Origin: Vulcanimicrobiota bacterium
GTDB lineage: Bacteria; Vulcanimicrobiota; Vulcanimicrobiia; Vulcanimicrobiales; Vulcanimicrobiaceae
NCBI GenBank assembly: GCA_963714015.1
Contig: OY970223.1
Location: 3,392,001 to 3,456,000, forward strand
Direction of reading: 5' to 3'
DNA length: 64,000 bases
This document shows, in pieces, positions 26,501-38,719 of the stretch. Within the stretch, counting starts at the first letter, position 1, and the number at the start of each line of letters is the position of its first letter. The notes under the pieces are model-generated. The model worked only from the letters and a program-made list of their open reading frames with translations, had not been told where the DNA came from and did not search any database. The position numbers were made by a program, and so were the translations under genes.

Positions 26501-26536
26501 AATAAAAACGGACGCCTCGCGGCGTCCGTTTTTATT
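26501..26536. terminator. Bidirectional intrinsic terminator
   Basis: AATAAAAACGGACGCC-TCGC-GGCGTCCGTTTTTATT between convergent genes. Confidence 0.85.
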
Positions 26537-28677
26537 ATTGGGCTTTGGCGGCGTGCAGGGCGACGACGCGCTGGCTCGGCGCCTGGCGCCCGTTGTGAAG
26601 GCGGACGAAGTCGAGCAGCGCCGGATACGTCACCGGCCGGCTGAAGAAATACCCCTGCGCCTGATCGCAATGCAGGCGCACGAAGTCGTTTTGCGCCTCG
26701 TATTCGATGCCTTCGGCGATGATGCGCAGGCCGAGCGTCTGTCCCAGGGTCGAAATCGTTTTGACGATTCCTTGATCGTACGAGTCGCGGACGATGTCGT
26801 CGATGAAGCCTTTGTCGATCTTCACCGCGCTCACCGGCAACCGCTTGATGTAGCCCAGCGAGCTGTAGCCGGTGCCGAAGTCGTCGACGACGATCCCGAT
26901 GCCGCGGCCGCTCAGCCGCCGCAGCGCGGCGATTGCGAGTTCGTTCACCATGACGCTCTCGGTGATCTCGATGTCCAGGGCGGTCGGCGGCAAGCCCGTC
27001 TCGCTGAGAATGCCGAACAGCGTCGGAATGAAGTTCGGATCGTAAAGGTCCTTCGTCGAGAGATTAACCGCGATTCGGAAGTCCGGTACTTCGGTCGCCC
27101 GGATTCGCGCCGCGGTACGGCATGCTTCGCGCAGCACCCAGCGGCTCAGATCGACGATGATGCCGGTCTCCTCCGCAATAGGGATGAACACTTGCGGCAA
27201 GAGTTCGCCGAGCATCGGGTGACGCCAGCGCAGGAGCGCCTCCGCTGCGACCACTGCTCGCGTCTGCAGATCGACGATCGGCTGGAAGAGCAGATGCAGC
27301 TCGTCGCGCGAAAGCGCTTGGCGCAGATCCTGCTCGAGACCGAGACGCTCGAGCACGTGCGCTCTCGTCGCGCCGTCGAAAAGCCGCGCGGTATTTCCGC
27401 CCGCCTCTTTCGAACGGTACATCGCCTGATCCGCGAACGCGATCAGGTCGTCGGCGCTTTGCGCGTCTTGCGGGAACATGCACCCGCCGACGCTGGCGCT
27501 GACGAACAGATCGCGTCCTGCGATACTGAAGGGCTCGCGGAAAGCATCGATCACCTCGGAAGCCAACGAGGTGGCGTTGCGTTTCTGCGCGAGCCCTCCC
27601 ATGACGACGACGAATTCGTCGCCGCCGGGCCGGAATATCACCGACCGATCGTCCAACAAACTGTTGAGACGGTGCGCGATAGCCTTTAACAGCTCGTCGC
27701 CGCTGCGGTGCCCGAGCGTGTCGTTGATTGTCTTGAAGCGATCGACGTCCACGAACAAAACCGCGAGCGATTCGCTCTTCATCCCCGCTTCCTCAATCAT
27801 GGCCGGAAGGCGCTCGCCCAGGGCCAAGCGATTGGGGAGCGAGGTTAGCGCGTCCTGGCGCGCAAGGCGCGAGAACCGCTCGGCGTTTTCGCGCATGTCG
27901 GTGACGTCGAGCATGACGCCGATCGCACCGATGACGGCGCCTTGCGGATCGCGCAACGGTTCCACGTCGTTTTGCATCCAGCTAAGCCCGTGCCGCGATT
28001 CGTACCGTACCGTCTCGCCGCCGAAAGCGCGAGCTACCGCTGCCGCGCACGCTTCTTTTTCGGCGTATTCGCCCAGCAGACACTCGAACGGCGCACCCAC
28101 GACTGCATCCTCGACAAGACCGCGGTCGCTCAAACCGGCGCCGGCCACTGACGTAATGCGCATATCCAGGTCGACGGTCCAAATGACCGCCGGAACCTGA
28201 GAAAGCAATACGCGAAACCGTCGTTCGTTCGAGCTCGAGGCGCAGTTCGCCGTGCTTGCTCTCGGTAACGTCGCGCAAGTAAACGAGTACCTCGTCTTGC
28301 GCGGGCTGCACGCGGATTTCCACCCACATATTAGTGGAAGCAAAGAATTGGAGGCGCTCGATCGGGGTGCCGCTGCTCTGCGCGCGCCGCATATCCGGTA
28401 CAAGCTCGCTTGCGAGCGGATCGAAGATGTCCACGATGCGCCGGCCGACCAGGTCGGCGGCGCTGCGCCGAAGCATCTCTTCGGCGCGTTCGTTGACGTG
28501 AGAGAAACGCATTTCGCCGTCGACGATGAAGAATGCGTCAGGAATGCTTTCGAGAAGGCTGTAGCGCTTCTGGACGAGCAGCCGTTTTTCAGCCGCGCTG
28601 CGCGTCCGGATCCATGTGAAGATCGCCGCCGCCAGGACGGCGATCGCGGTAGCGGTTATCGCAAGCGCCGGGTTCAT
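26535..28677 (-). CDS. TM-PAS-PAS-GGDEF-EAL c-di-GMP enzyme; 1-nt frameshift near 28233
   Basis: Two PAS domains; intact GGDEF, EALLRW and DDFGTGYSSL; ATGA overlap with the upstream regulator. Confidence 0.88.
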
Positions 28678-30215
28678 GCGGTCGCCTTGCGCTCCAGCTC
28701 TTTGCGCAGAGCCAGCTGTCCACGCACCCCGAGGGTTTCGTAGACCTCCTCGATTTGCTTCTTCAGCGTGAACTCGCTGCGGCTAAAACGCCGGCAGAGT
28801 TCTTCCATCCCGGCGCCTTCACAAAGGGCCGTTGCCAGTTGAAGCTGGATGTTGCTCAGTTTGCCCAGGGCCGGACTTTGCGCCGGCTCGGGCGGATGTT
28901 GTACCTGCTTGCACAGGGCGCTATTGGGAAACACGAGCGCGTGCGCTTGCGCCATCCGGTTCCACGCATCTTCCTGCGTAAGCTCGTAGAGCGCTTCGGC
29001 CGCAAGCGCAGCGCGAAACTCGTGCTGAATCTGGGAGAAGACTTGGTAGGCCGACTCCAGATTCTTTACCGCCAGGTTCTTGTTTCCGAGTACTGCTTGG
29101 ACGCGTCCTGAGGCAAACTTCTCCAAAGCTTGCGTTCTGCGCTGATGCGAGGCGCCGATCGTCGGATCGACGTTCTGCGTTCCGAGTTGAATATACGTCG
29201 AAACGTAGCGCTGAGCTTGACCCATGTCGAGGGGAGCAAACAGTACCGCGAGCGAGGTCAGCGCGATGCGTTCTTCGCCCATCGTCGCGCCCCATTGCAC
29301 AGTACGCGCCAGATTGTGCGCCTGATAAAGCTCCTCCGTTGCCCACGCTTCGTTGCCCGTCATCCGCGCGACGAAGGCCCGATCGACGTGCGCCATCACC
29401 TTCCAAGCGACGGTCGGGGCGAGGTCTTTGGAGTCCTTGAACAGCCACTGAGCCCGCGCCGATTCACCTTCCAAGAATGCTTGCCATGCGAGAGCGCGCA
29501 CGCACAGGAATTTGTAAGTCTGCAGGTCTGCAGTCCATTCGAGTGCATCGTACAAGCGCTCGCCTTGAGCGACGGCGTCGCGCTCGCCCAGTTCGAACGC
29601 AAGCTCGAGCATAGCATGCAGAGCGACGCTAACCATGGTGAGGTCGCAGCGGTAGCCGTGCTGCTCGAACATCCGCAAAGCAGCCAGCAGTTCGTGCAGC
29701 TGATTGCGGTAATCTTCGACCCCGGCGTACATCCATGCTTGCACGACCTTCGCCGAAAAGCGGACTGCCGGATCTTCAGCGCGCGCCGCGATGTTGAAGT
29801 ACTCGCTCTGCGGCTCGTAGTTCTTCGTCGACCACAGAAGGCGCGAGCGATGCAGCGCGAGGTGCGAGCCGAGCGGATCGTCCGATCCGTTCAGCAGACC
29901 TTCGCCGGCGTCCAGCATTTCCTGCGCGCCGTCGAAGTTTCTGGAGTTCGTATACGCCCTTGCGGAGGCGATGTAGTATCCGAATCTTCCGGCATTGGAA
30001 GTAAAGGCGTCGGAGTGCGCCGCCAGTTCTTGTAATCCCAGAATCGGATCGCGGTAGGTGAGCACTTGCGCCCGCAGCAGCAGGCCCTGTTCACTTTCCG
30101 CTTGCGGCCATTCCTCGCATCCGTTGAGCAGCTCGAGTGCCTCGTCGCGACGTGCGCGCCGGTGGGCTTCGAGTGCGTTCTGCAGATGCTCGGCGGCTTG
30201 TATGCCGGTCATCAT
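28674..30215 (-). CDS. TPR-like helical protein with C-terminal LuxR-type HTH (copy A)
   Basis: Ala/Leu-rich helical repeats; LSNIQLQLATALCEG...SEFTLKKQIEEVYETLGV. Confidence 0.75.
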   Translation of the reverse strand: MMTGIQAAEHLQNALEAHRRARRDEALELLNGCEEWPQAESEQGLLLRAQVLTYRDPILGLQELAAHSDAFTSNAGRFGYYIASARAYTNSRNFDGAQEMLDAGEGLLNGSDDPLGSHLALHRSRLLWSTKNYEPQSEYFNIAARAEDPAVRFSAKVVQAWMYAGVEDYRNQLHELLAALRMFEQHGYRCDLTMVSVALHAMLELAFELGERDAVAQGERLYDALEWTADLQTYKFLCVRALAWQAFLEGESARAQWLFKDSKDLAPTVAWKVMAHVDRAFVARMTGNEAWATEELYQAHNLARTVQWGATMGEERIALTSLAVLFAPLDMGQAQRYVSTYIQLGTQNVDPTIGASHQRRTQALEKFASGRVQAVLGNKNLAVKNLESAYQVFSQIQHEFRAALAAEALYELTQEDAWNRMAQAHALVFPNSALCKQVQHPPEPAQSPALGKLSNIQLQLATALCEGAGMEELCRRFSRSEFTLKKQIEEVYETLGVRGQLALRKELERKATA

Positions 30216-30243: not shown

Positions 30244-31227
30244 TTAGTCCTGAAGAGTTCCGACGCTGGTGTCTTGTCCGCCGCTAACCACGGCTTGTGG
30301 TCCCTGGACGGATTTCTGCTGTGAGGGTGAAGTCGACGTGAAGCTCAATCCGGCAGCATTCACGTAAGTGTTGTAGACGACCAAACTATACGAACCGGCG
30401 TTCAGCGTATGAATCGAGAAGTTGCCGCCCGCATCGGTGCTTGAGGTGTTGCCGATGGAACCGTCGGCGGCGTAAGCCACGACAACCGCGTTCTGAACCG
30501 GATTCCCGTTCGCATCGTGGATCAGACCGCTGATGGAACCGCAGTCGTCAATCGGCGCGACGAAGAGGGCCGGCTGCGCTATCAGCGTGCCGCTCGAGTT
30601 CAGGTTGAGCGATTCGAACGCGTTGAAGTCTACGCGGACCGCATTGGTGCCGTTTTGCGGAATCGAGAAGGGCTGATTGAGCACGATGGCCACCGTGTTC
30701 GAGTCGATGCTGGCGGTGCTCGTGTTGGAGCCGGCACCGACGCTGCTCAGCGTCAAGTCGTTCGTCTGGAAGTCCAGCGGCATGGACGTGCCGTTGCTGA
30801 AAACTCCGGTGCTGCTCTTGAGGTCCACCACCAGGCGCAGCTGTTGATAGTCGGATCGCAGCGTCTGCCCGTTCGCGACGACTTGACCGCTATTGCCGGG
30901 CTCGTTGAGGACGTTGACGACGTAGGGCGTCGAGAATTGCGCAAGGACTGTGGTCTGCCCGTTGTCGATCGCGTCGACTTCTTTGACGCCGATGTTCAGC
31001 GCGGACATTTGATTGCCGCCCAAGTTCGGAGGCGCGTCGCCCAGAAGCACCCGGAGCAAATCGCTGACCGCCGGACCAATGCCGCCGTACACGCCCTTCG
31101 GAAGCACTGTGTGATGGTGCGGGTCCGAGGCGGGAAGGACCGACCCGACCGATCCGGTTTGATGCGCGCAACCCCCAAGGCCTAGCAGACAAATAGAAAC
31201 TACAGCCGTTGTAAAGAGCTTTTTCAA
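30244..31227 (-). CDS. Lipoprotein with DUF4382-like and carboxypeptidase-regulatory-like domains (copy A)
   Basis: Lipobox LGGC; VLLGDAP, YQQLRL, VDFNA..SL; GSISG...TDAGGNF...LNAGSY. Confidence 0.75.
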   Translation of the reverse strand: MKKLFTTAVVSICLLGLGGCAHQTGSVGSVLPASDPHHHTVLPKGVYGGIGPAVSDLLRVLLGDAPPNLGGNQMSALNIGVKEVDAIDNGQTTVLAQFSTPYVVNVLNEPGNSGQVVANGQTLRSDYQQLRLVVDLKSSTGVFSNGTSMPLDFQTNDLTLSSVGAGSNTSTASIDSNTVAIVLNQPFSIPQNGTNAVRVDFNAFESLNLNSSGTLIAQPALFVAPIDDCGSISGLIHDANGNPVQNAVVVAYAADGSIGNTSSTDAGGNFSIHTLNAGSYSLVVYNTYVNAAGLSFTSTSPSQQKSVQGPQAVVSGGQDTSVGTLQD

Positions 31228-31238
31228 GGTCGTTCCTC

Positions 31239-31344
31239 CCGCGTCACTCTCCCTGGACGCAGCAAAGATGTATTCAATTGTGGTTCGTACACCCGGATTG
31301 CCTAATTATACAGCCGGCAGAAATATGCGCTACAAATCGTTTAC
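31239..31344 (-). promoter_or_regulatory. Cassette A promoter and leader hairpin
   Basis: GTAAACGA-N26-TATAAT and hairpin CTGCGTC/GACGCGG next to the SD; same layout in cassette B. Confidence 0.6.
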
Positions 31345-31407
31345 GCTTCTAAGGCTGAAAACTAGCCAAACTTGGTAAATTTCGCGTTAAACTGCGCATT
31401 GAGTCGG

Positions 31408-32936
31408 CTATCGTACAAGCACTTTGCGCAGTGCCATAGTGCTGCTCACGCCGAACGTTTCGTAGATCGCATCGATCTGCTTCTTGAGCGTGAATTCGCT
31501 GCGGCTAAACCGCCGCGAAAGTTCGTCTATGCCGGCGCCTTCGCACAATGCCATCGCCAGCTGACGCTGCGAATTCGAAAGCTTCGTCATTGTCCCGACT
31601 GCCGCGCCGGCACGGGGCTCAGAGACACCCCGGCAAAGCGCGCTGTTCGGGAAGCTGCGAGCATGCGCAACGGCCATCTCATTCCAGGCGTCGTCTTCAG
31701 TGAGTTCGTACAGCGCCTGGGCTGCGAGCGCCGCGCGGAATTCGTGGTGAATTTGTGAGAAGATCTCGTAGGCCGACTCGAGATGCTTCACCGCGCTGAG
31801 TTTGTTCCCGAGCATTGCCTGAACGCGGCCGGAGGCGTATTTTTCGAGCGCCTGCGTTCGCCGTTGATGCGCGGCGCCCAGCGTCGGGTCGATGCCTTCG
31901 GTTCCCAAACGGATGTACGTGGAGACGTAACGCTGCGCTTGCGCCATTTCGGTGGGCGCGAACATCACTGCCAGCGAGATCAGCGCCATGCGCTCTTCAC
32001 CGATCGTGGCGCCCCACTGCACCGTGCGCGCCAGATTGTGCGCTTGATACACTCTTCGGTCGCCCACGCTTCATTGCCGTTCATTCGCGCCACGTACGCG
32101 CGATCGACGTGGGCCATCACCTTCCAGGCGACCGCCGGAGCGAGATCCTTGGAGTCTTTGAACAGCCACTGAGCGCGCGCAGCGTGGCCTTCCAGGAACG
32201 CTTGCCAGGCCAGGGCGCGTACGCACAAAAATTTGTAGATCTGAAGGTCGGCAGTCCATTCGAACGCGTCGTACAGGGCTTCGCCTTTGGAGACTGCCGC
32301 ACGATCGCCCAGTTCGAAAGCCAGCTCCAGCAGTGCATGCAGCGCGACGCCGACCATTGTGAGATCGCAGCGATAGCCGTCCTGCTCGAACATCCGCAGG
32401 GCGGCGAGCAGTTCGCGAAGCTGCGCGTGGTAATCTTCCAGGCCGGCATACATCCACGACTGGACGACCTTTGCGGAGAATCGAATCGATGGATCGGCAG
32501 CCCGTAAAGCGACGTCGAAAAGACGGTTTTGCGGATCGTAGTTCTTGGTCGACCACAGCAAACGCGCGCGGTTCAGGGCCAGCTGCGATTGCTTCGGATC
32601 GTTCGGGCCGTCCAGAAGCGCCTCGGCAGCTTCGAGCATGTCGCCGGCGCCCTCGAAGTTTCGCGAGTTCGTGTAGGCGCGAGCCGAAGCAATGAAGTAT
32701 CCGAAGCGGCCTTCCGGTGAGCTAAACGCTTCGGAGTGCGCCGCGAGTTCTTGCAAACCCAGAATCGGGTCGCGGTACGTCAGTACCTGCGCTCGCAAGA
32801 GCAATCCTTGCTCGGCGTGCGGATCGGGCCATTCCTCGCACCCGGAGAGGCGCTCTAGCGCTTCATCGCGGCGCGCGCGCCGGTGAGCTTCGAGCGCCGA
32901 CTCCAACAGCTCGGCAGCCTGTATGCCGGTAAACAT
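31408..32936 (-). CDS. TPR-like/LuxR-HTH protein (copy B); 1-nt deletion near 32051
   Basis: Close paralog of 28674-30215; frame break at WATEE(L)YQAH. Confidence 0.75.
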
Positions 32937-32966
32937 CAGCTTTGAATCCCTTAAGAGATCGCGCGC

Positions 32967-33941
32967 TTAGTCCTGAATGTTTCCGGCTTTTGCTTCTTGT
33001 CCGCCTGTAACGGTAACGGACGGTCCGGCGATCACGTTCTGACTCGACGACGAACTGGACTGGAACGTGCGTCCGGTGGCGTTGGTGTAGTTGTTATAGA
33101 CCTGGAGCGTGTACGTTCCCTCAGGAAGCGTCTGCAGTTCGAAGTTCCCGCGAGAATCGGTCGACCCGGTGTTGCCGATGGAACCATCCGCTGCGTAGGC
33201 GACGACGACTGCATTGCTGATGCCGGTTCTCGAATTGCTGCTGTCGACCACGCGCCCGTTGATGGATCCCGATTCGTCGACGGGAGCGACGAACATCGCG
33301 GGGACTGAGACAAGACCGCCTTGCGTCCAGAGATCGAGCGATTCAAAGGCGTTGAAATCGACCCGCACGGCGTTGTGTTCGTCTTGCGGTATCGAGAACG
33401 GCTGGCTGATGACGATGTCGACGGCGCCGTTTCCGTCAGGCGTCGTGGTCGTGGTCGAGCCGGCGCCCACGGTGCTGAACGTCGGCGTATTCGTCAGGAA
33501 GTTGAGCGGCATCGTCGTTCCTCCCTTGAAAACGCCGTCGCTGGCGGCCAGACTTACGACGAGGCGGAGCTGGTCGTACTGCGTTCGCGCGACGTGCGCG
33601 TTCGCGACGAGCTGGCCGTTGTCATCATTGAATTGCAGCACGTTGACGACTAACGGTTTGTCGAACTTGGAAAGGACCGTCGTTTGTCCGTTTTGGATGG
33701 CGTCGACTTCCTCTAGACCCAGATTCAACTTCTCGAGCGTGTGCCCGTACAGATTCGGCGACGCGTCGCCGAGCAAAACCTGCATCGAGGCCGCGCTCGG
33801 GCCTATTCCGCCGTAGACGCCCTGCGGCACGATGTACCGCGAGCCACGGGCTTCGGGAATCGATGATTGACCGGTGTGCGAACACGCGGGCAACACGATT
33901 GCAAAAAGCGAAACCAAAGCCGTTGTAAACAGTCTCTTCAA
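32967..33941 (-). CDS. DUF4382-like lipoprotein (copy B)
   Basis: TTG start after GGAGG; lipobox LPAC; paralog of 30244-31227. Confidence 0.75.
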   Translation of the reverse strand: MKRLFTTALVSLFAIVLPACSHTGQSSIPEARGSRYIVPQGVYGGIGPSAASMQVLLGDASPNLYGHTLEKLNLGLEEVDAIQNGQTTVLSKFDKPLVVNVLQFNDDNGQLVANAHVARTQYDQLRLVVSLAASDGVFKGGTTMPLNFLTNTPTFSTVGAGSTTTTTPDGNGAVDIVISQPFSIPQDEHNAVRVDFNAFESLDLWTQGGLVSVPAMFVAPVDESGSINGRVVDSSNSRTGISNAVVVAYAADGSIGNTGSTDSRGNFELQTLPEGTYTLQVYNNYTNATGRTFQSSSSSSQNVIAGPSVTVTGGQEAKAGNIQD

Positions 33942-33952
33942 CGCCGTTTCCT

Positions 33953-34061
33953 CCGCGCCGCTCTCCCTTGGGCGCAGCATGATACAAGTTTTCTCTAACC
34001 GCGAATTTCGCGATACAAGTAATTATACGGGAGGTTAAGCGTAAGGCCAGGATTCGTTTAC
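33953..34061 (-). promoter_or_regulatory. Cassette B promoter and leader hairpin
   Basis: GTAAACGA-N26-TATAAT; hairpin CTGCGCC/GGCGCGG. Confidence 0.6.
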
Positions 34062-34156: not shown

Positions 34157-34180
34157 GACATCTGGACATCTGGACATCTG
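34157..34180. repeat. (GACATCTG)x3 tandem repeat at the tRNA 3' end
   Basis: Read directly from the sequence. Confidence 0.85.
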
Positions 34181-34269
34181 GAGGAGAGGGTGGGATTCGA
34201 ACCCACGGAAGGCTCATCACCTTCTGCGGTTTTCAAGACCGCTGCATTAAACCGCTCTGCCACCTCTCC
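34179..34269 (-). tRNA. tRNA-Ser(TGA)
   Basis: GGAGAGG acceptor stem, anticodon loop CTTGAAA, long variable arm, GGTTCGAATCC, encoded CCA. Confidence 0.97.
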
Positions 34270-34410: not shown

Positions 34411-36546
34411 TTACCACGACGACGACGCCGCTGCCCCATTAAGAAGACCTATGGTGTTGCCGGAAACGAACCACATGCGGCAATCGGGGCCTGTTGCAAG
34501 AGCGTCGATCGGCTTTTCCGTTCGGTATGTCACCGGTGTGTGACCGGCTCGAAAGCGAACGACTACGGGTACGCGTTCGCTGACGTAGACACTGCCGTCG
34601 CATGCTGCAGCGACGCCCTGCGCCGAGAGATCGGCATCCGGTAAAGCAAAGCGCTGCGTTACACGGCGGGGTGTTACACGCAACACTTGCATGCGATTCG
34701 AATACCATATGTCAGCGCCGGACGCGGGAAGGAGTATTGGAGCCCCGCCAACGTCGTTGGGCACCGGAGGGACGGAAAAGCGTTTGATGGCTCCCCCCGG
34801 TGTTACTCGGAGCAGCGTATGGTACGCAACTTCCCAAAGCGAGCCGTCACGCGCGCCGGTCAGCGCGAGCGGTTCACCCAGGCCTGCCGGCAATGCAATA
34901 ACGCGCGTGCCGTCGATGCGCGCAACTTGCGGTCTGCTGCCGCCGCGCGCGAACCAAACGTTTCCGCCGGCATCGACCGCGATCTGCAGCGTCTGCACTG
35001 CCACGCCTGACGGCAAAAACCGCTGCGCGCGCTTTACGCCATTGCGTGTCACCGATACGACGACGCCGTCGTTGTTCTCGAACCATAGCGTCCCGCGACG
35101 ATCCTCGAGCAGCTGCAATCCCGTCGTCGCTTTTGTAAGCACCCGGGTGTACGTTAGGCGCCCATTGGCGGATACACGGGTAACGCCCTCATTGCGGCCA
35201 TAGTAATCGCGACCACTCGAGATGATGGCTTCGCCGTTGGGTTCGGGCACGATGCAATCAACACACCATTGCTCCATGATCTCTGCGATGGTGCGCAGAT
35301 GAAGGTAATGCAAAGGTCTTGCAGGTGGTAGATGCAGCCGCACTTCGCGTATGCTCGGTTCGTGGAACAGCAACGCTTCTTCACCATCGCGGTTCTCGCA
35401 AAAAACCGAAATCCAGCCGGTCCAGACCGAAAGGCTCACGGGAGCCGCGCAGTCAATGGCACCAACGCGGCGAGCGCCTTCACGGTCAAACCTCACGAGA
35501 TCGTGGCCAGCCACCGCATAAACGATTCCATGGGAATCCGTGACCATAGCAGCTGGTGGATTTAGCGCAAATGGTCGATACAGAAGGCGATCGGGCAAGC
35601 TGGTGGCAAGGCCGAGCTTACCGGCGCGAGTCGCGAGCATCGCTCCGGAGGGCAGTGAAGCAAGGAAGTTTGTGCCGTCGATTCGCCAGTGCGGCGAGTC
35701 GTTGCGCGCGTCATAACGGTACCAGCGCCCGTTCACTAAAACGTAGGCATATCCGCCATTCACGAGGGCAGAACCGTGAACGCTGGTATTCGGCGAAATG
35801 TTCAGTTGGCGATCGGGAGCAAATTTCGAAGACCAGAGCGTTTTGCCATCCGAAAGGCGAATGGCGCTAATCATCATCGGATCATAGATGTCGGGAGTGT
35901 GTTCCAACCAAGTGCTGTCGACGACTACTCTGTCCCGATCGATTGCGAGGATGCCGTTCGATCCCGTATACCAACGCAGTCGTCCATTGCCTACATCGAA
36001 GGCAAATAGGAACTGCTCAATCGTCGCGCCGTCTTCGGTGACGTGTTGAAGAATCAAGCGGTCGTCATACACCGGAGTTCCCGTAGCGCTTCCGTCCATT
36101 GCAAATGATTGCCACAACTGCTTGCCGGTAGTGAGATCAAATGCCTCGAAGTCGCCCACGCCAGTGCTTCCCAAGAGGATGCCCGCTGCGACGCCTTCGG
36201 GGTTGAACGTTGATGAAACAGTGCGGCGCCACACGACGCGTCCATTGAGTAAATCGTACGCGCCGATATCGCCATGCAACCTGAACACAGCAAAGCCTGA
36301 ACCGCTTTTTACCGGGTCGACGCCCAGATTCGGCAAACGACGCCGGATCGCCGGCCGCAGCGATGTTCCAACAATTGTCAGCGGCGGACCCGTCACTACC
36401 GGCAGCACCCGTCCTTGAGACGTTGATAGGACGGAATGCAAAACATTGGGAGGCGCAACGGCGGTTGTTAGGGACGATGCAACGCGCTGTAGGCATCCCG
36501 TCGTGGCAATGAGGACCGCTGCGACCGCAAGAATCGCCTTTAACAT
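34411..36546 (-). CDS. Lipoprotein with PQQ-like beta-propeller and Vgb-like repeats
   Basis: Lipobox TTGC; AFDLTTGKQLW-type repeats; DAGGNVWF and GPDCRMWF repeats. Confidence 0.7.
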   Translation of the reverse strand: MLKAILAVAAVLIATTGCLQRVASSLTTAVAPPNVLHSVLSTSQGRVLPVVTGPPLTIVGTSLRPAIRRRLPNLGVDPVKSGSGFAVFRLHGDIGAYDLLNGRVVWRRTVSSTFNPEGVAAGILLGSTGVGDFEAFDLTTGKQLWQSFAMDGSATGTPVYDDRLILQHVTEDGATIEQFLFAFDVGNGRLRWYTGSNGILAIDRDRVVVDSTWLEHTPDIYDPMMISAIRLSDGKTLWSSKFAPDRQLNISPNTSVHGSALVNGGYAYVLVNGRWYRYDARNDSPHWRIDGTNFLASLPSGAMLATRAGKLGLATSLPDRLLYRPFALNPPAAMVTDSHGIVYAVAGHDLVRFDREGARRVGAIDCAAPVSLSVWTGWISVFCENRDGEEALLFHEPSIREVRLHLPPARPLHYLHLRTIAEIMEQWCVDCIVPEPNGEAIISSGRDYYGRNEGVTRVSANGRLTYTRVLTKATTGLQLLEDRRGTLWFENNDGVVVSVTRNGVKRAQRFLPSGVAVQTLQIAVDAGGNVWFARGGSRPQVARIDGTRVIALPAGLGEPLALTGARDGSLWEVAYHTLLRVTPGGAIKRFSVPPVPNDVGGAPILLPASGADIWYSNRMQVLRVTPRRVTQRFALPDADLSAQGVAAACDGSVYVSERVPVVVRFRAGHTPVTYRTEKPIDALATGPDCRMWFVSGNTIGLLNGAAASSSW

Positions 36547-36750
36547 TGTGGAAATTGCTCGCAAAAAGAGCGCATTTAACTGCGCGCCTGCCGTAGCGCA
36601 CGCACCGATTCGGCGCGCGTGGTACGCCATAGCATTTGTATCACGGTTTGGTAACGGAATGCGTCACGGCTGGTCCTCGCAAGTCCTAACGCTCCTACAA
36701 TCGAGCGTAAATCGCGGTTTGCGTAGATTCGTTAAGACGGCAGCAAGTGA

Positions 36751-36908: not shown

Positions 36909-38719
<1,811 letters not shown>

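Follow-up and report, generated by a model that had tools for sequence, protein, structure and literature searches.

An octapeptide, GVYGGIGP, is shared by the tethers of two tandem lipoproteins encoded in a 64,000-nucleotide stretch of contig OY970223.1 (assembly GCA_963714015.1, positions 3,392,001 to 3,456,000; hereafter the window), beside genes for regulators that combine a tetratricopeptide repeat (TPR)-like sensor with a LuxR-type DNA-binding module. Sequence comparison indicates that the motif is a rule dividing regulator-coupled lipoproteins from plain paralogues. The lipoprotein, the TPR-LuxR regulator and a PAS-GGDEF-EAL enzyme together define a three-gene module. The explanation preferred here, although held with somewhat less than even confidence, is that the co-encoded TPR sensor reads this motif of the lipoprotein, either as a freed and imported peptide or on the precursor before export. 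The motif copies and the proteins that carry them are as follows.

Positions 31072 to 31095, minus strand: motif copy A, GVYGGIGP, residues 45-52 of lipoprotein A, assigned from its codons and from an AlphaFold2 predicted local distance difference test score (pLDDT) below 50 at residues 44-50.
Positions 33798 to 33821, minus strand: motif copy B, GVYGGIGP, at the matching place in lipoprotein B, assigned from its codons and the A/B alignment.
Positions 30244 to 31227, minus strand: lipoprotein A, 327 amino acids, with DUF4382 at residues 58-215 and a CarboxypepD_reg beta-sandwich at 231-285 (Pfam, AlphaFold2).
Positions 31168 to 31227, minus strand: residues 1-20 of lipoprotein A, comprising the signal peptide and the lipobox LGGC (Cys20).
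Positions 31060 to 31167, minus strand: tether of lipoprotein A, residues 21-56, predicted to be disordered (low pLDDT) and variable outside the motif.
Positions 32967 to 33980, minus strand: lipoprotein B, an open reading frame (ORF) of 337 amino acids with the domain arrangement of A and 54% identity to it.

Read on the minus strand, copy A is GGC GTG TAC GGC GGC ATT GGT CCG (31095 to 31072) and copy B is GGC GTC TAC GGC GGA ATA GGC CCG (33821 to 33798). Four of the eight codons differ (GTG/GTC, GGC/GGA, ATT/ATA, GGT/GGC), in every case synonymously and at the third position. Outside the motif the two tethers, compared by BLASTP, are identical at 6/24 positions upstream and 0/7 downstream (6/31 in total) versus 8/8 within it, and eight consecutive matches would not be expected by chance at a tether identity rate of about 0.19. 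An earlier note on this DNA, made from its letters alone, had located the octapeptide in both linkers, listed the same four silent codon differences and described the linkers as diverged elsewhere; reading both minus-strand copies bears out each of these statements. The same note called the octapeptide invariant. This holds among the nearest relatives, but further out the core alone persists, and the strict pattern G[VIL][YFW]GG[IVL]GP is found in 10 of 118 metagenomic homologues, the closest.

A six-frame scan of the organism's own genome (3.56 Mb) found exact and near-exact copies of the motif only in these two ORFs. A looser pattern gave seven other matches there, which are unrelated and have no preceding lipoprotein leader. 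Three known types of signal were considered and rejected. A general lipoprotein sorting or export signal is ruled out, as the motif is private to two ORFs of the genome. A double-glycine leader, handled by a C39 peptidase/ABC exporter, is ruled out because a signal for Sec and signal peptidase II (Sec/SPII) precedes the motif and no transporter is found among the conserved neighbours. Bacteroidetes-style O-glycosylation sequons have the form D-S/T-hydrophobic; such a sequon is ruled out as inconsistent, many members having D-T-L, many D-V-I and the window proteins G-V-Y.

GVYGGIGP is the version used in this genus of a motif of about ten residues, approximated from sequence as [KRH]-P-x-D-[VT]-h-G-G-[IPG]-[GP]. 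The alignment behind this consensus contains 63 sequences picked from the 118 metagenomic homologues, fragments and near-duplicates having been dropped. Numbered relative to the paired glycines, its positions in the 63 aligned homologues are occupied as follows.

Position -6: a basic residue, or His/Gln.
Position -5: Pro in 43/63.
Position -3: Asp in 48, Gly in 10 and Glu in 4 of 63.
Position -2: Val or Thr.
Position -1: Leu, Tyr or Ile.
First Gly: present in 61/63.
Second Gly: present in 63/63.
Position +1: Ile, Pro or Gly.
Position +2: Gly in 41/63.

Cluster representatives at about 27-35% identity keep the element, for example as NSLGGIP and QDIAGGIP. Among the homologues the distance from GG to the Asp of the first strand is 9-16 residues and that from the lipid-anchor Cys to GG is 18-52 residues; spacing is thus fixed to the fold and loose to the anchor, which places the motif relative to the domain and not relative to the lipid anchor. 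A second tether element, K-H-V-R-H-L-K, lies 15-30 residues before GG in a single deep-branching clade (genus g2: L061, L063-L066, L092; protein P0117).

Selection on the motif can be followed in ten within-genome paralogue pairs. In these pairs a span of 12 codons around GG shows 1-7 synonymous codon differences and 0-3 non-synonymous ones, the latter mostly at its edges, and the motif core is unchanged as protein in 10/10. The sequences therefore support a short linear motif selected at the protein level. This is what the earlier note had proposed from one pair; synonymous-only changes in the core of the window pair and of nine further pairs, together with conservation to about 30% identity, now strengthen the proposal. 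That the octapeptide has no function, and is either a leftover of gene conversion between tandem copies or a chance product of a Gly-rich tether, is scarcely credible. The copies are tandem, 2.7 kb apart, and Gly, Ser and Pro abound in the tether; but the differences at 4/8 codons exclude recent conversion, and a core kept in homologues to about 30% identity does not look like chance. Moreover, in the tree copy A falls beside the copy of genome G206 and copy B beside the one from G210, all four proteins sharing the identical octapeptide, so that the A/B duplication is older than these species.

The distribution of the motif by genomic context was followed in 73 lipoprotein genes, from 60 loci fetched from 57 other genomes of the phylum and from the window, which contributes two. 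They were grouped by adjacency to a regulator alone. Type I (n=52) has a regulator homologue of about 510 amino acids directly downstream, at a distance of tens of bases, with four genes in the order lipoprotein, lipoprotein, regulator; Type II (n=21) has no adjacent regulator. The motif is present at the same place in 52/52 Type I genes, seven deep-branching ones being recognised by eye alone, and GG is changed in 3/52 (SLGQIP in two identical copies, DYSGTAP in one). It is found in 0/21 Type II genes, in which a short Gly/Ser/Thr tether leads straight into strand 1. With a hidden Markov model (HMM) of the motif, built from the 63 metagenomic homologues, 45/52 Type I genes exceed 1.8 bits, the highest score reached by any Type II gene. 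The earlier note had asked whether the motif occurs only next to TPR-LuxR genes or in all homologues whatever their context; the former is what these genes display, since the motif accompanies every regulator-linked member and is absent from the 21 regulator-less ones.

A quick maximum-likelihood tree of the folded domains, with all 73 rows kept and a careful search unfinished, places a single branch between Type I and Type II (support of 100 in the Shimodaira-Hasegawa-like approximate likelihood ratio test, SH-aLRT). With one dividing branch, the association counts as one origin and not as 52 independent observations. Every fetched Type I locus comes from Eremiobacterota family f1, and Type II is found in families f2, f3 and f11 as well; both types coexist in some genomes (for example G244, G330, G120, G339 and G121). 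A profile covering both subfamilies together matches 112/401 sampled genomes of the phylum at E <=1e-10. In one locus (L071, G130:C1:1571800-1590000) the whole module occurs twice, 5.1 kb apart, with identical lipoprotein copies and regulator copies of identical match statistics.

Both window lipoproteins match, at the sequence level, the criteria for bacterial Sec/SPII lipoproteins, and lipidation is predicted. The lipobox is LGLGGC with Cys20 in A and IVLPAC, with an unusual Pro at -2, in B; the probable start of B is a TTG at 33941 (324 amino acids), which aligns with the TTG start of A and gives Cys20. The lipobox Cys is kept in 63/63 aligned homologues, and the genome encodes the signal peptidase II LspA (PF01252). 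As an Omp85 protein is also encoded, the organism is taken to be a diderm with a lipoprotein pathway; LolA gave no Pfam match in this genome, which is 89.6% complete, and this does not establish its absence. Overall, A and B are identical at 177/329 positions (54%). The PF14321 (DUF4382) matches score 32.6 bits in A (58-215) and 39.6 bits in B (64-216), with a cut-off of 25 bits, and begin downstream of the motif in both; PF13620 (CarboxypepD_reg) scores 41.1 bits in A and 36.2 bits in B, with a cut-off of 32.3 bits. The earlier suggestion that the motif might be a signal peptide does not hold, the Sec/SPII signal peptide and lipobox occupying residues 1-20, upstream of it.

An AlphaFold2 model of lipoprotein A, computed from the 63-sequence alignment, has a mean pLDDT of 87.4, and its fold opens with a strand at residues 57-63. 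With residues 44-50 below 50, the motif is consequently predicted to be a flexible segment just ahead of the domain and outside the fold. The possible disorder raised in the earlier note thus finds support in the model, and the alternative raised beside it, that the motif is the first structural strand, does not, as that strand begins at residue 57. Foldseek comparison of the model with the PDB gave weak generic beta-sandwich matches (pilins, adhesins, S-layer proteins) at template modelling (TM) scores <=0.25, and these predicted likenesses are without functional clue.

A structural role of another kind, in which the motif is an N-terminal strand or cap that docks on its own or a neighbouring beta-sandwich (strand exchange, oligomerisation) and is invisible to monomer prediction, is considered improbable. 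It would agree with the position of the motif just 4-5 residues ahead of the first strand in the window protein, with its conservation together with the domain across the subfamily, and with the suitability of Gly-Gly-x-Gly-Pro for a tight turn. However, the rest of the protein is predicted with pLDDT >90, spacing to strand 1 varies by 7 residues, the sister subfamily has both domains without the motif, and the motif is retained in shortened proteins that have lost DUF4382 (genome G376) or both domains (G213).

These shortened proteins were found beside the regulator, which is encoded in the window together with the third gene of the module as follows.

Positions 28674 to 30215, minus strand: regulator A, 513 amino acids, modelled by AlphaFold2 as a TPR-like superhelix (1-440) and a four-helix LuxR/GerE-like C-terminus (455-509).
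Positions 31408 to 32936, minus strand: regulator B, of the same family, in two ORFs (31980-32936 and 31408-32067).
Positions 26535 to 28677, minus strand: TM-PAS-PAS-GGDEF-EAL gene (Pfam; TM, transmembrane segment), its start overlapping the stop of regulator A by 4 nt.

A profile of the regulator matches 245/401 sampled genomes of the phylum at E <=1e-10 (genome tallies include the unpublished genomes G245, G247, G237, G359, G275, G178 and G212). The strong tier consists of 113 listed matches with E <1e-150, whose coordinates were compared by eye with the lipoprotein matches and the fetched loci. Five of the 113 are not assessable (contig ends or unknown). In the remaining 108, a matched lipoprotein lies directly upstream in 102 (one of them broken, one in unpublished G245), a shortened lipoprotein in three, and a lipobox followed by masked bases in one; two are without a lipoprotein (the third copy of G327, and unpublished G247). 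The weak tier (E 1e-30 to 1e-98) contains paralogous TPR-LuxR genes with no recognisable upstream lipoprotein in the eight loci examined, and in genus g4 such a paralogue is present in 79/80 genomes and a lipoprotein match in 0/80.

Two genomes account for the shortened lipoproteins. In G213 (L095:3889-4113, minus strand), the regulator is preceded at about 70 nt by an ORF of 74 amino acids that starts at a TTG and has the ribosome-binding site GAGG. It encodes a signal peptide with the lipobox LLAAC, then a tether, followed by RLKPMDTTGGGP and about 20 more residues, with no beta-sandwich. The protein ends in a Thr/Pro run and C-x-x-C-K, and no GGDEF-EAL gene is nearby. A search of the protein collection with this form returned only its own public record and no homologue of similar length. 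In G376, two diverged short forms of 159 and 153 amino acids have no DUF4382 and retain part of the C-terminal sandwich; their residues 1-60 (signal peptide, tether, GTQSGWGG) are identical at 41/60 positions versus 36/96 for the rest. As far as these sequences go, they show that tether and motif can persist beside the regulator without the domain that usually follows, which makes a purely structural role less likely, and equally one confined to shedding the domain.

Processing or docking outside the cytoplasm is the leading alternative, possible if rather doubtful. The motif would be a site recognised by an envelope protease or partner, at which the beta-sandwich is shed or held, much as LapG releases LapA under the control of cyclic di-GMP (c-di-GMP), and the regulator and GGDEF-EAL enzyme would control only the amount of lipoprotein, perhaps in response to c-di-GMP. 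A distance held to the fold (9-16 residues) and loose to the anchor (18-52), a disordered segment rich in small residues, and folded domains that weakly resemble cell-surface beta-sandwich proteins are all compatible with such a site, and identical motifs in the paralogues of one genome would fit a single shared envelope partner. A GGDEF-EAL gene is, moreover, linked in 33/40 loci: of the 39 Type I loci fetched, 32 have it directly behind their final regulator, and so does the window. The encoded enzyme, however, is anchored by a single N-terminal membrane helix and lacks a periplasmic domain, and the conserved neighbours include neither a protease nor any other envelope gene across the 40 loci, in which three gene clusters recur widely and the remaining clusters are antisense ORFs or confined to close relatives. 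A housekeeping protease would have one client family, as the motif is private to these proteins, and the G213 form, with about 20 residues past the motif, leaves little to shed or dock.

The regulator itself gave no significant sequence match in Pfam, NCBIfam or the PDB, and no P-loop family was matched; PF00196 (LuxR/GerE) did not match the window regulator at E up to 10, and the predicted C-terminal four-helix module suggests this family. Its AlphaFold2 model, built with 34 orthologues, has a pLDDT of 91.5, with TPR-like helices from residue 4, a short linker and the four helices at 455-509. Among the 34 orthologues, TPR_8 is matched in 15 and GerE in 9 (best E 5.3e-5). The label "TPR-LuxR" given to the neighbouring genes in the earlier note is therefore probably right at the level of fold and family. 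Comparison of the model with representative structures gave the following matches.

MalT domain III (1hz4_A): Z 22.1, the top match, with 347/366 residues aligned (model residues 69-435).
RapI: Z 20.6.
Phage Rap with bound peptide: Z 20.1.
AimR: Z 18.6 and 18.5.
NprR-NprX: Z 17.5.
Eukaryotic APC and OGT TPR domains: Z 19-20.

With APC and OGT scoring alike, the likeness is a general one to TPR sensors. Of the Trp, Arg, Asp, Glu, His and Gln residues that are invariant in the 34 orthologues, most fall within 244-345, the pattern expected of a conserved binding site, which remains putative. An extra regulator-like ORF of 439 amino acids, with no C-terminal helix-turn-helix (HTH) and with one TAG inside the match, is located just upstream of the lipoprotein in one locus of G244 (L052:7193-8512, minus strand).

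How the TPR sensor might read the motif can be outlined as a sequence of steps, in which cleavage, import, binding and DNA targets have been inferred. The lipoprotein would be exported via Sec/SPII; a peptide containing the motif would be released from the tether and re-imported or, in a variant, the motif would be bound on the precursor ahead of export. Once filled, the TPR groove would switch the LuxR-type DNA-binding domain and thereby set how strongly the operon, the c-di-GMP enzyme included, is expressed. The TPR sensor is proposed as reader because the sole other proteins inherited along with the motif are located in the cytoplasm or carry cytoplasmic domains on a membrane anchor, because TPR sensors bind extended peptides, and because the motif outlasts the loss of the folded domains. 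Peptide import seems possible in principle, given the 16 matched pieces of SBP_bac_5 (Opp/Dpp-type) binding-protein genes in the genome. The residue at -1 differs between genomes, being Leu in G339, Val in G362, Ile in G272 and Thr in G330, and is the same in both copies of each. Paralogues that agree at variable motif positions while orthologues differ would fit a shared, lineage-specific reader. Since motif states track the species and paralogue tree, some 50 related pairs cannot separate co-evolution with receptor residues from ancestry.

That reading takes place exclusively in the cytoplasm before export, the TPR domain binding the precursor as TPR chaperones bind secretion substrates and the regulator reporting export backlog or rate, is decidedly improbable as an explanation of its own. 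It needs neither cleavage nor re-import, it fits the tight order of lipoprotein and then regulator (regulator A begins 28 nt after lipoprotein A), and the association data fit it in the same way as they fit a peptide cue. Sec substrates, on the other hand, are normally exported fast, and nothing in the sequence sets this possibility apart from the import model.

Several observations weigh against the TPR sensor as reader of the motif. The contrast of 52 against 21 genes amounts, on the tree, to one evolutionary event and shows co-inheritance, not interaction. The seven Type I genes below the HMM separation are deep-branching, and by eye their motif is a degenerate h-G-G-h-P or has a changed GG. 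The TPR fold of the model is generic, its eukaryotic matches scoring as high as Z 19-20. Paralogous signal-receptor pairs are usually expected to diverge, but the tandem cassettes of one genome carry an identical motif, and the agreement between paralogues does not fit private signal-receptor pairs. The regulator can also stand alone: an NRAMP-like gene, not a lipoprotein, precedes the third copy in G327, and in unpublished G247, a sister species of G213, no lipoprotein ORF was seen in the 700 nt upstream. With its sister seemingly lipoprotein-less, the 74-amino-acid form of G213 may be a decaying remnant. Finally, the folded domains are conserved subfamily-wide, so that the lipoprotein is, to judge from its sequence, more than a peptide precursor.

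The state of the assembly affects two of the window genes. In regulator B, a 1-nt gap at about 32051/32052, in comparison with cassette A, breaks the reading frame, and the GGDEF-EAL gene is divided between two frames, with a switch at about 28237-28262, where the L035 orthologue is one ORF of 713 amino acids. One soil-metagenome run contained 0.24 of the sampled words as short contigs, and no RNA holder was listed; with public contigs lacking both frameshift sites, an assembly error and a true pseudogene are indistinguishable. Several SBP_bac_5 genes also occur as adjacent pieces in the genome (for example G000:C1 776730-777744, 1573607-1574621 and 2332563-2333595). These fragmented genes, the two split window genes and the 89.6% completeness of a single contig suggest many indel errors or pseudogenes. 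Beyond the module, a tRNA-Ser(tga) gene lies directly upstream of cassette B (34179-34269, minus strand). At 34411-36630 (minus strand) lies a gene for a 739-amino-acid protein with a PQQ_2/BamB-like propeller, a Vgb_lyase-family region and an N-terminal hydrophobic segment, and two ORFs at 36909-38355 (minus strand) are presumably of IS21 type, one probably encoding an IstB-like ATPase with a P-loop and the other a transposase piece.

Taken further, and more tentatively, the data would be explained by an undescribed peptide-signalling module in Eremiobacterota family f1. A lipid-anchored surface protein would double as the precursor of a tether cue of about ten residues, and a TPR domain resembling MalT domain III and Rap, joined to a LuxR HTH, would read the cue and switch an operon ending in a c-di-GMP synthase/phosphodiesterase. 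Such an RRNPP-like circuit, perhaps assembled independently in a diderm, would couple cell-cell or self-sensing to c-di-GMP. If true, a conserved disordered motif tied to a TPR-LuxR regulator would extend peptide-receptor logic to new parts, to a diderm and mostly uncultured phylum, and to c-di-GMP. A candidate ligand of about ten residues and a candidate receptor with a well-predicted domain of 445 residues make the proposal directly testable. Even if the signalling interpretation were wrong, the three-gene module and the sequence rule for regulator-coupled lipoproteins would stand. Literature searches on DUF4382 and on Eremiobacterota with LuxR returned unrelated papers and nothing on the module.

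One point of comparison is offered by the sister lipoproteins of Type II. They share the two Pfam domains, the lipobox and a similar length, but have a short Gly/Ser/Thr tether without the motif, and neither an adjacent regulator nor a GGDEF-EAL gene. MalT and other LAL regulators provide a second comparison. MalT domain III is the best match of the helical domain and the LuxR-type HTH is C-terminal in both, whereas the 513-residue regulator is too short to hold MalT's arm and N-terminal NTPase module (STAND); no N-terminal NTPase (NOD) module is present in it and no P-loop family was matched. The ligand of MalT is a sugar. In its predicted structure the regulator looks like the sensor and DNA-binding half of MalT without the NTPase.

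The cleavage site of LapG is a di-alanine, in contrast to the Gly-Gly motif described here. The LapD-LapG-LapA system, as presented in two reports (PMC3032545, PMC3032553), is similar in having a surface protein with a short motif near its N-terminal anchor and a genetic tie to GGDEF/EAL. It differs in that the conserved neighbourhood here includes no LapG-type protease or LapD-type periplasmic domain, and in that a Sec/SPII lipoprotein takes the place of a giant adhesin secreted by a type 1 system.

A further comparison is with peptide-receptor cassettes; some enterococcal pheromones derive from lipoprotein precursors. In RRNPP(A) cassettes (Rap-Phr, NprR-NprX, PlcR-PapR, PrgX, AimR-AimP), as set out in one source (PMC9765709), cytoplasmic TPR receptors of Firmicutes and phages read imported peptides. 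The present system likewise combines a predicted cytoplasmic TPR sensor and DNA-binding domain with a neighbouring gene whose exported product bears a short, conserved linear peptide. The sensor fold matches RapI, phage Rap, AimR and NprR at Z 17.5-20.6, although unrelated TPR proteins score alike and no relation is apparent at the sequence level. The differences are several. The HTH of the window regulator is C-terminal and LuxR/GerE-like, that of RRNPP proteins N-terminal and XRE-like; the model has neither an N-terminal XRE HTH nor a Rap three-helix bundle, and its sole DNA-binding-like module is at 455-509. The motif lies in the mature tether of a two-domain lipoprotein of 327 amino acids and not in a propeptide of 10-100 amino acids, from which RRNPP systems derive a pheromone of 5-10 residues that Opp takes up again, a 74-amino-acid form occurring in one genome only. 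The precursor gene comes first, paralogous cassettes share one motif, and the host is a diderm member of the Eremiobacterota (Omp85), not a Firmicute. Although its architecture is thus not that of an RRNPP cassette, by analogy the system resembles one in its logic.

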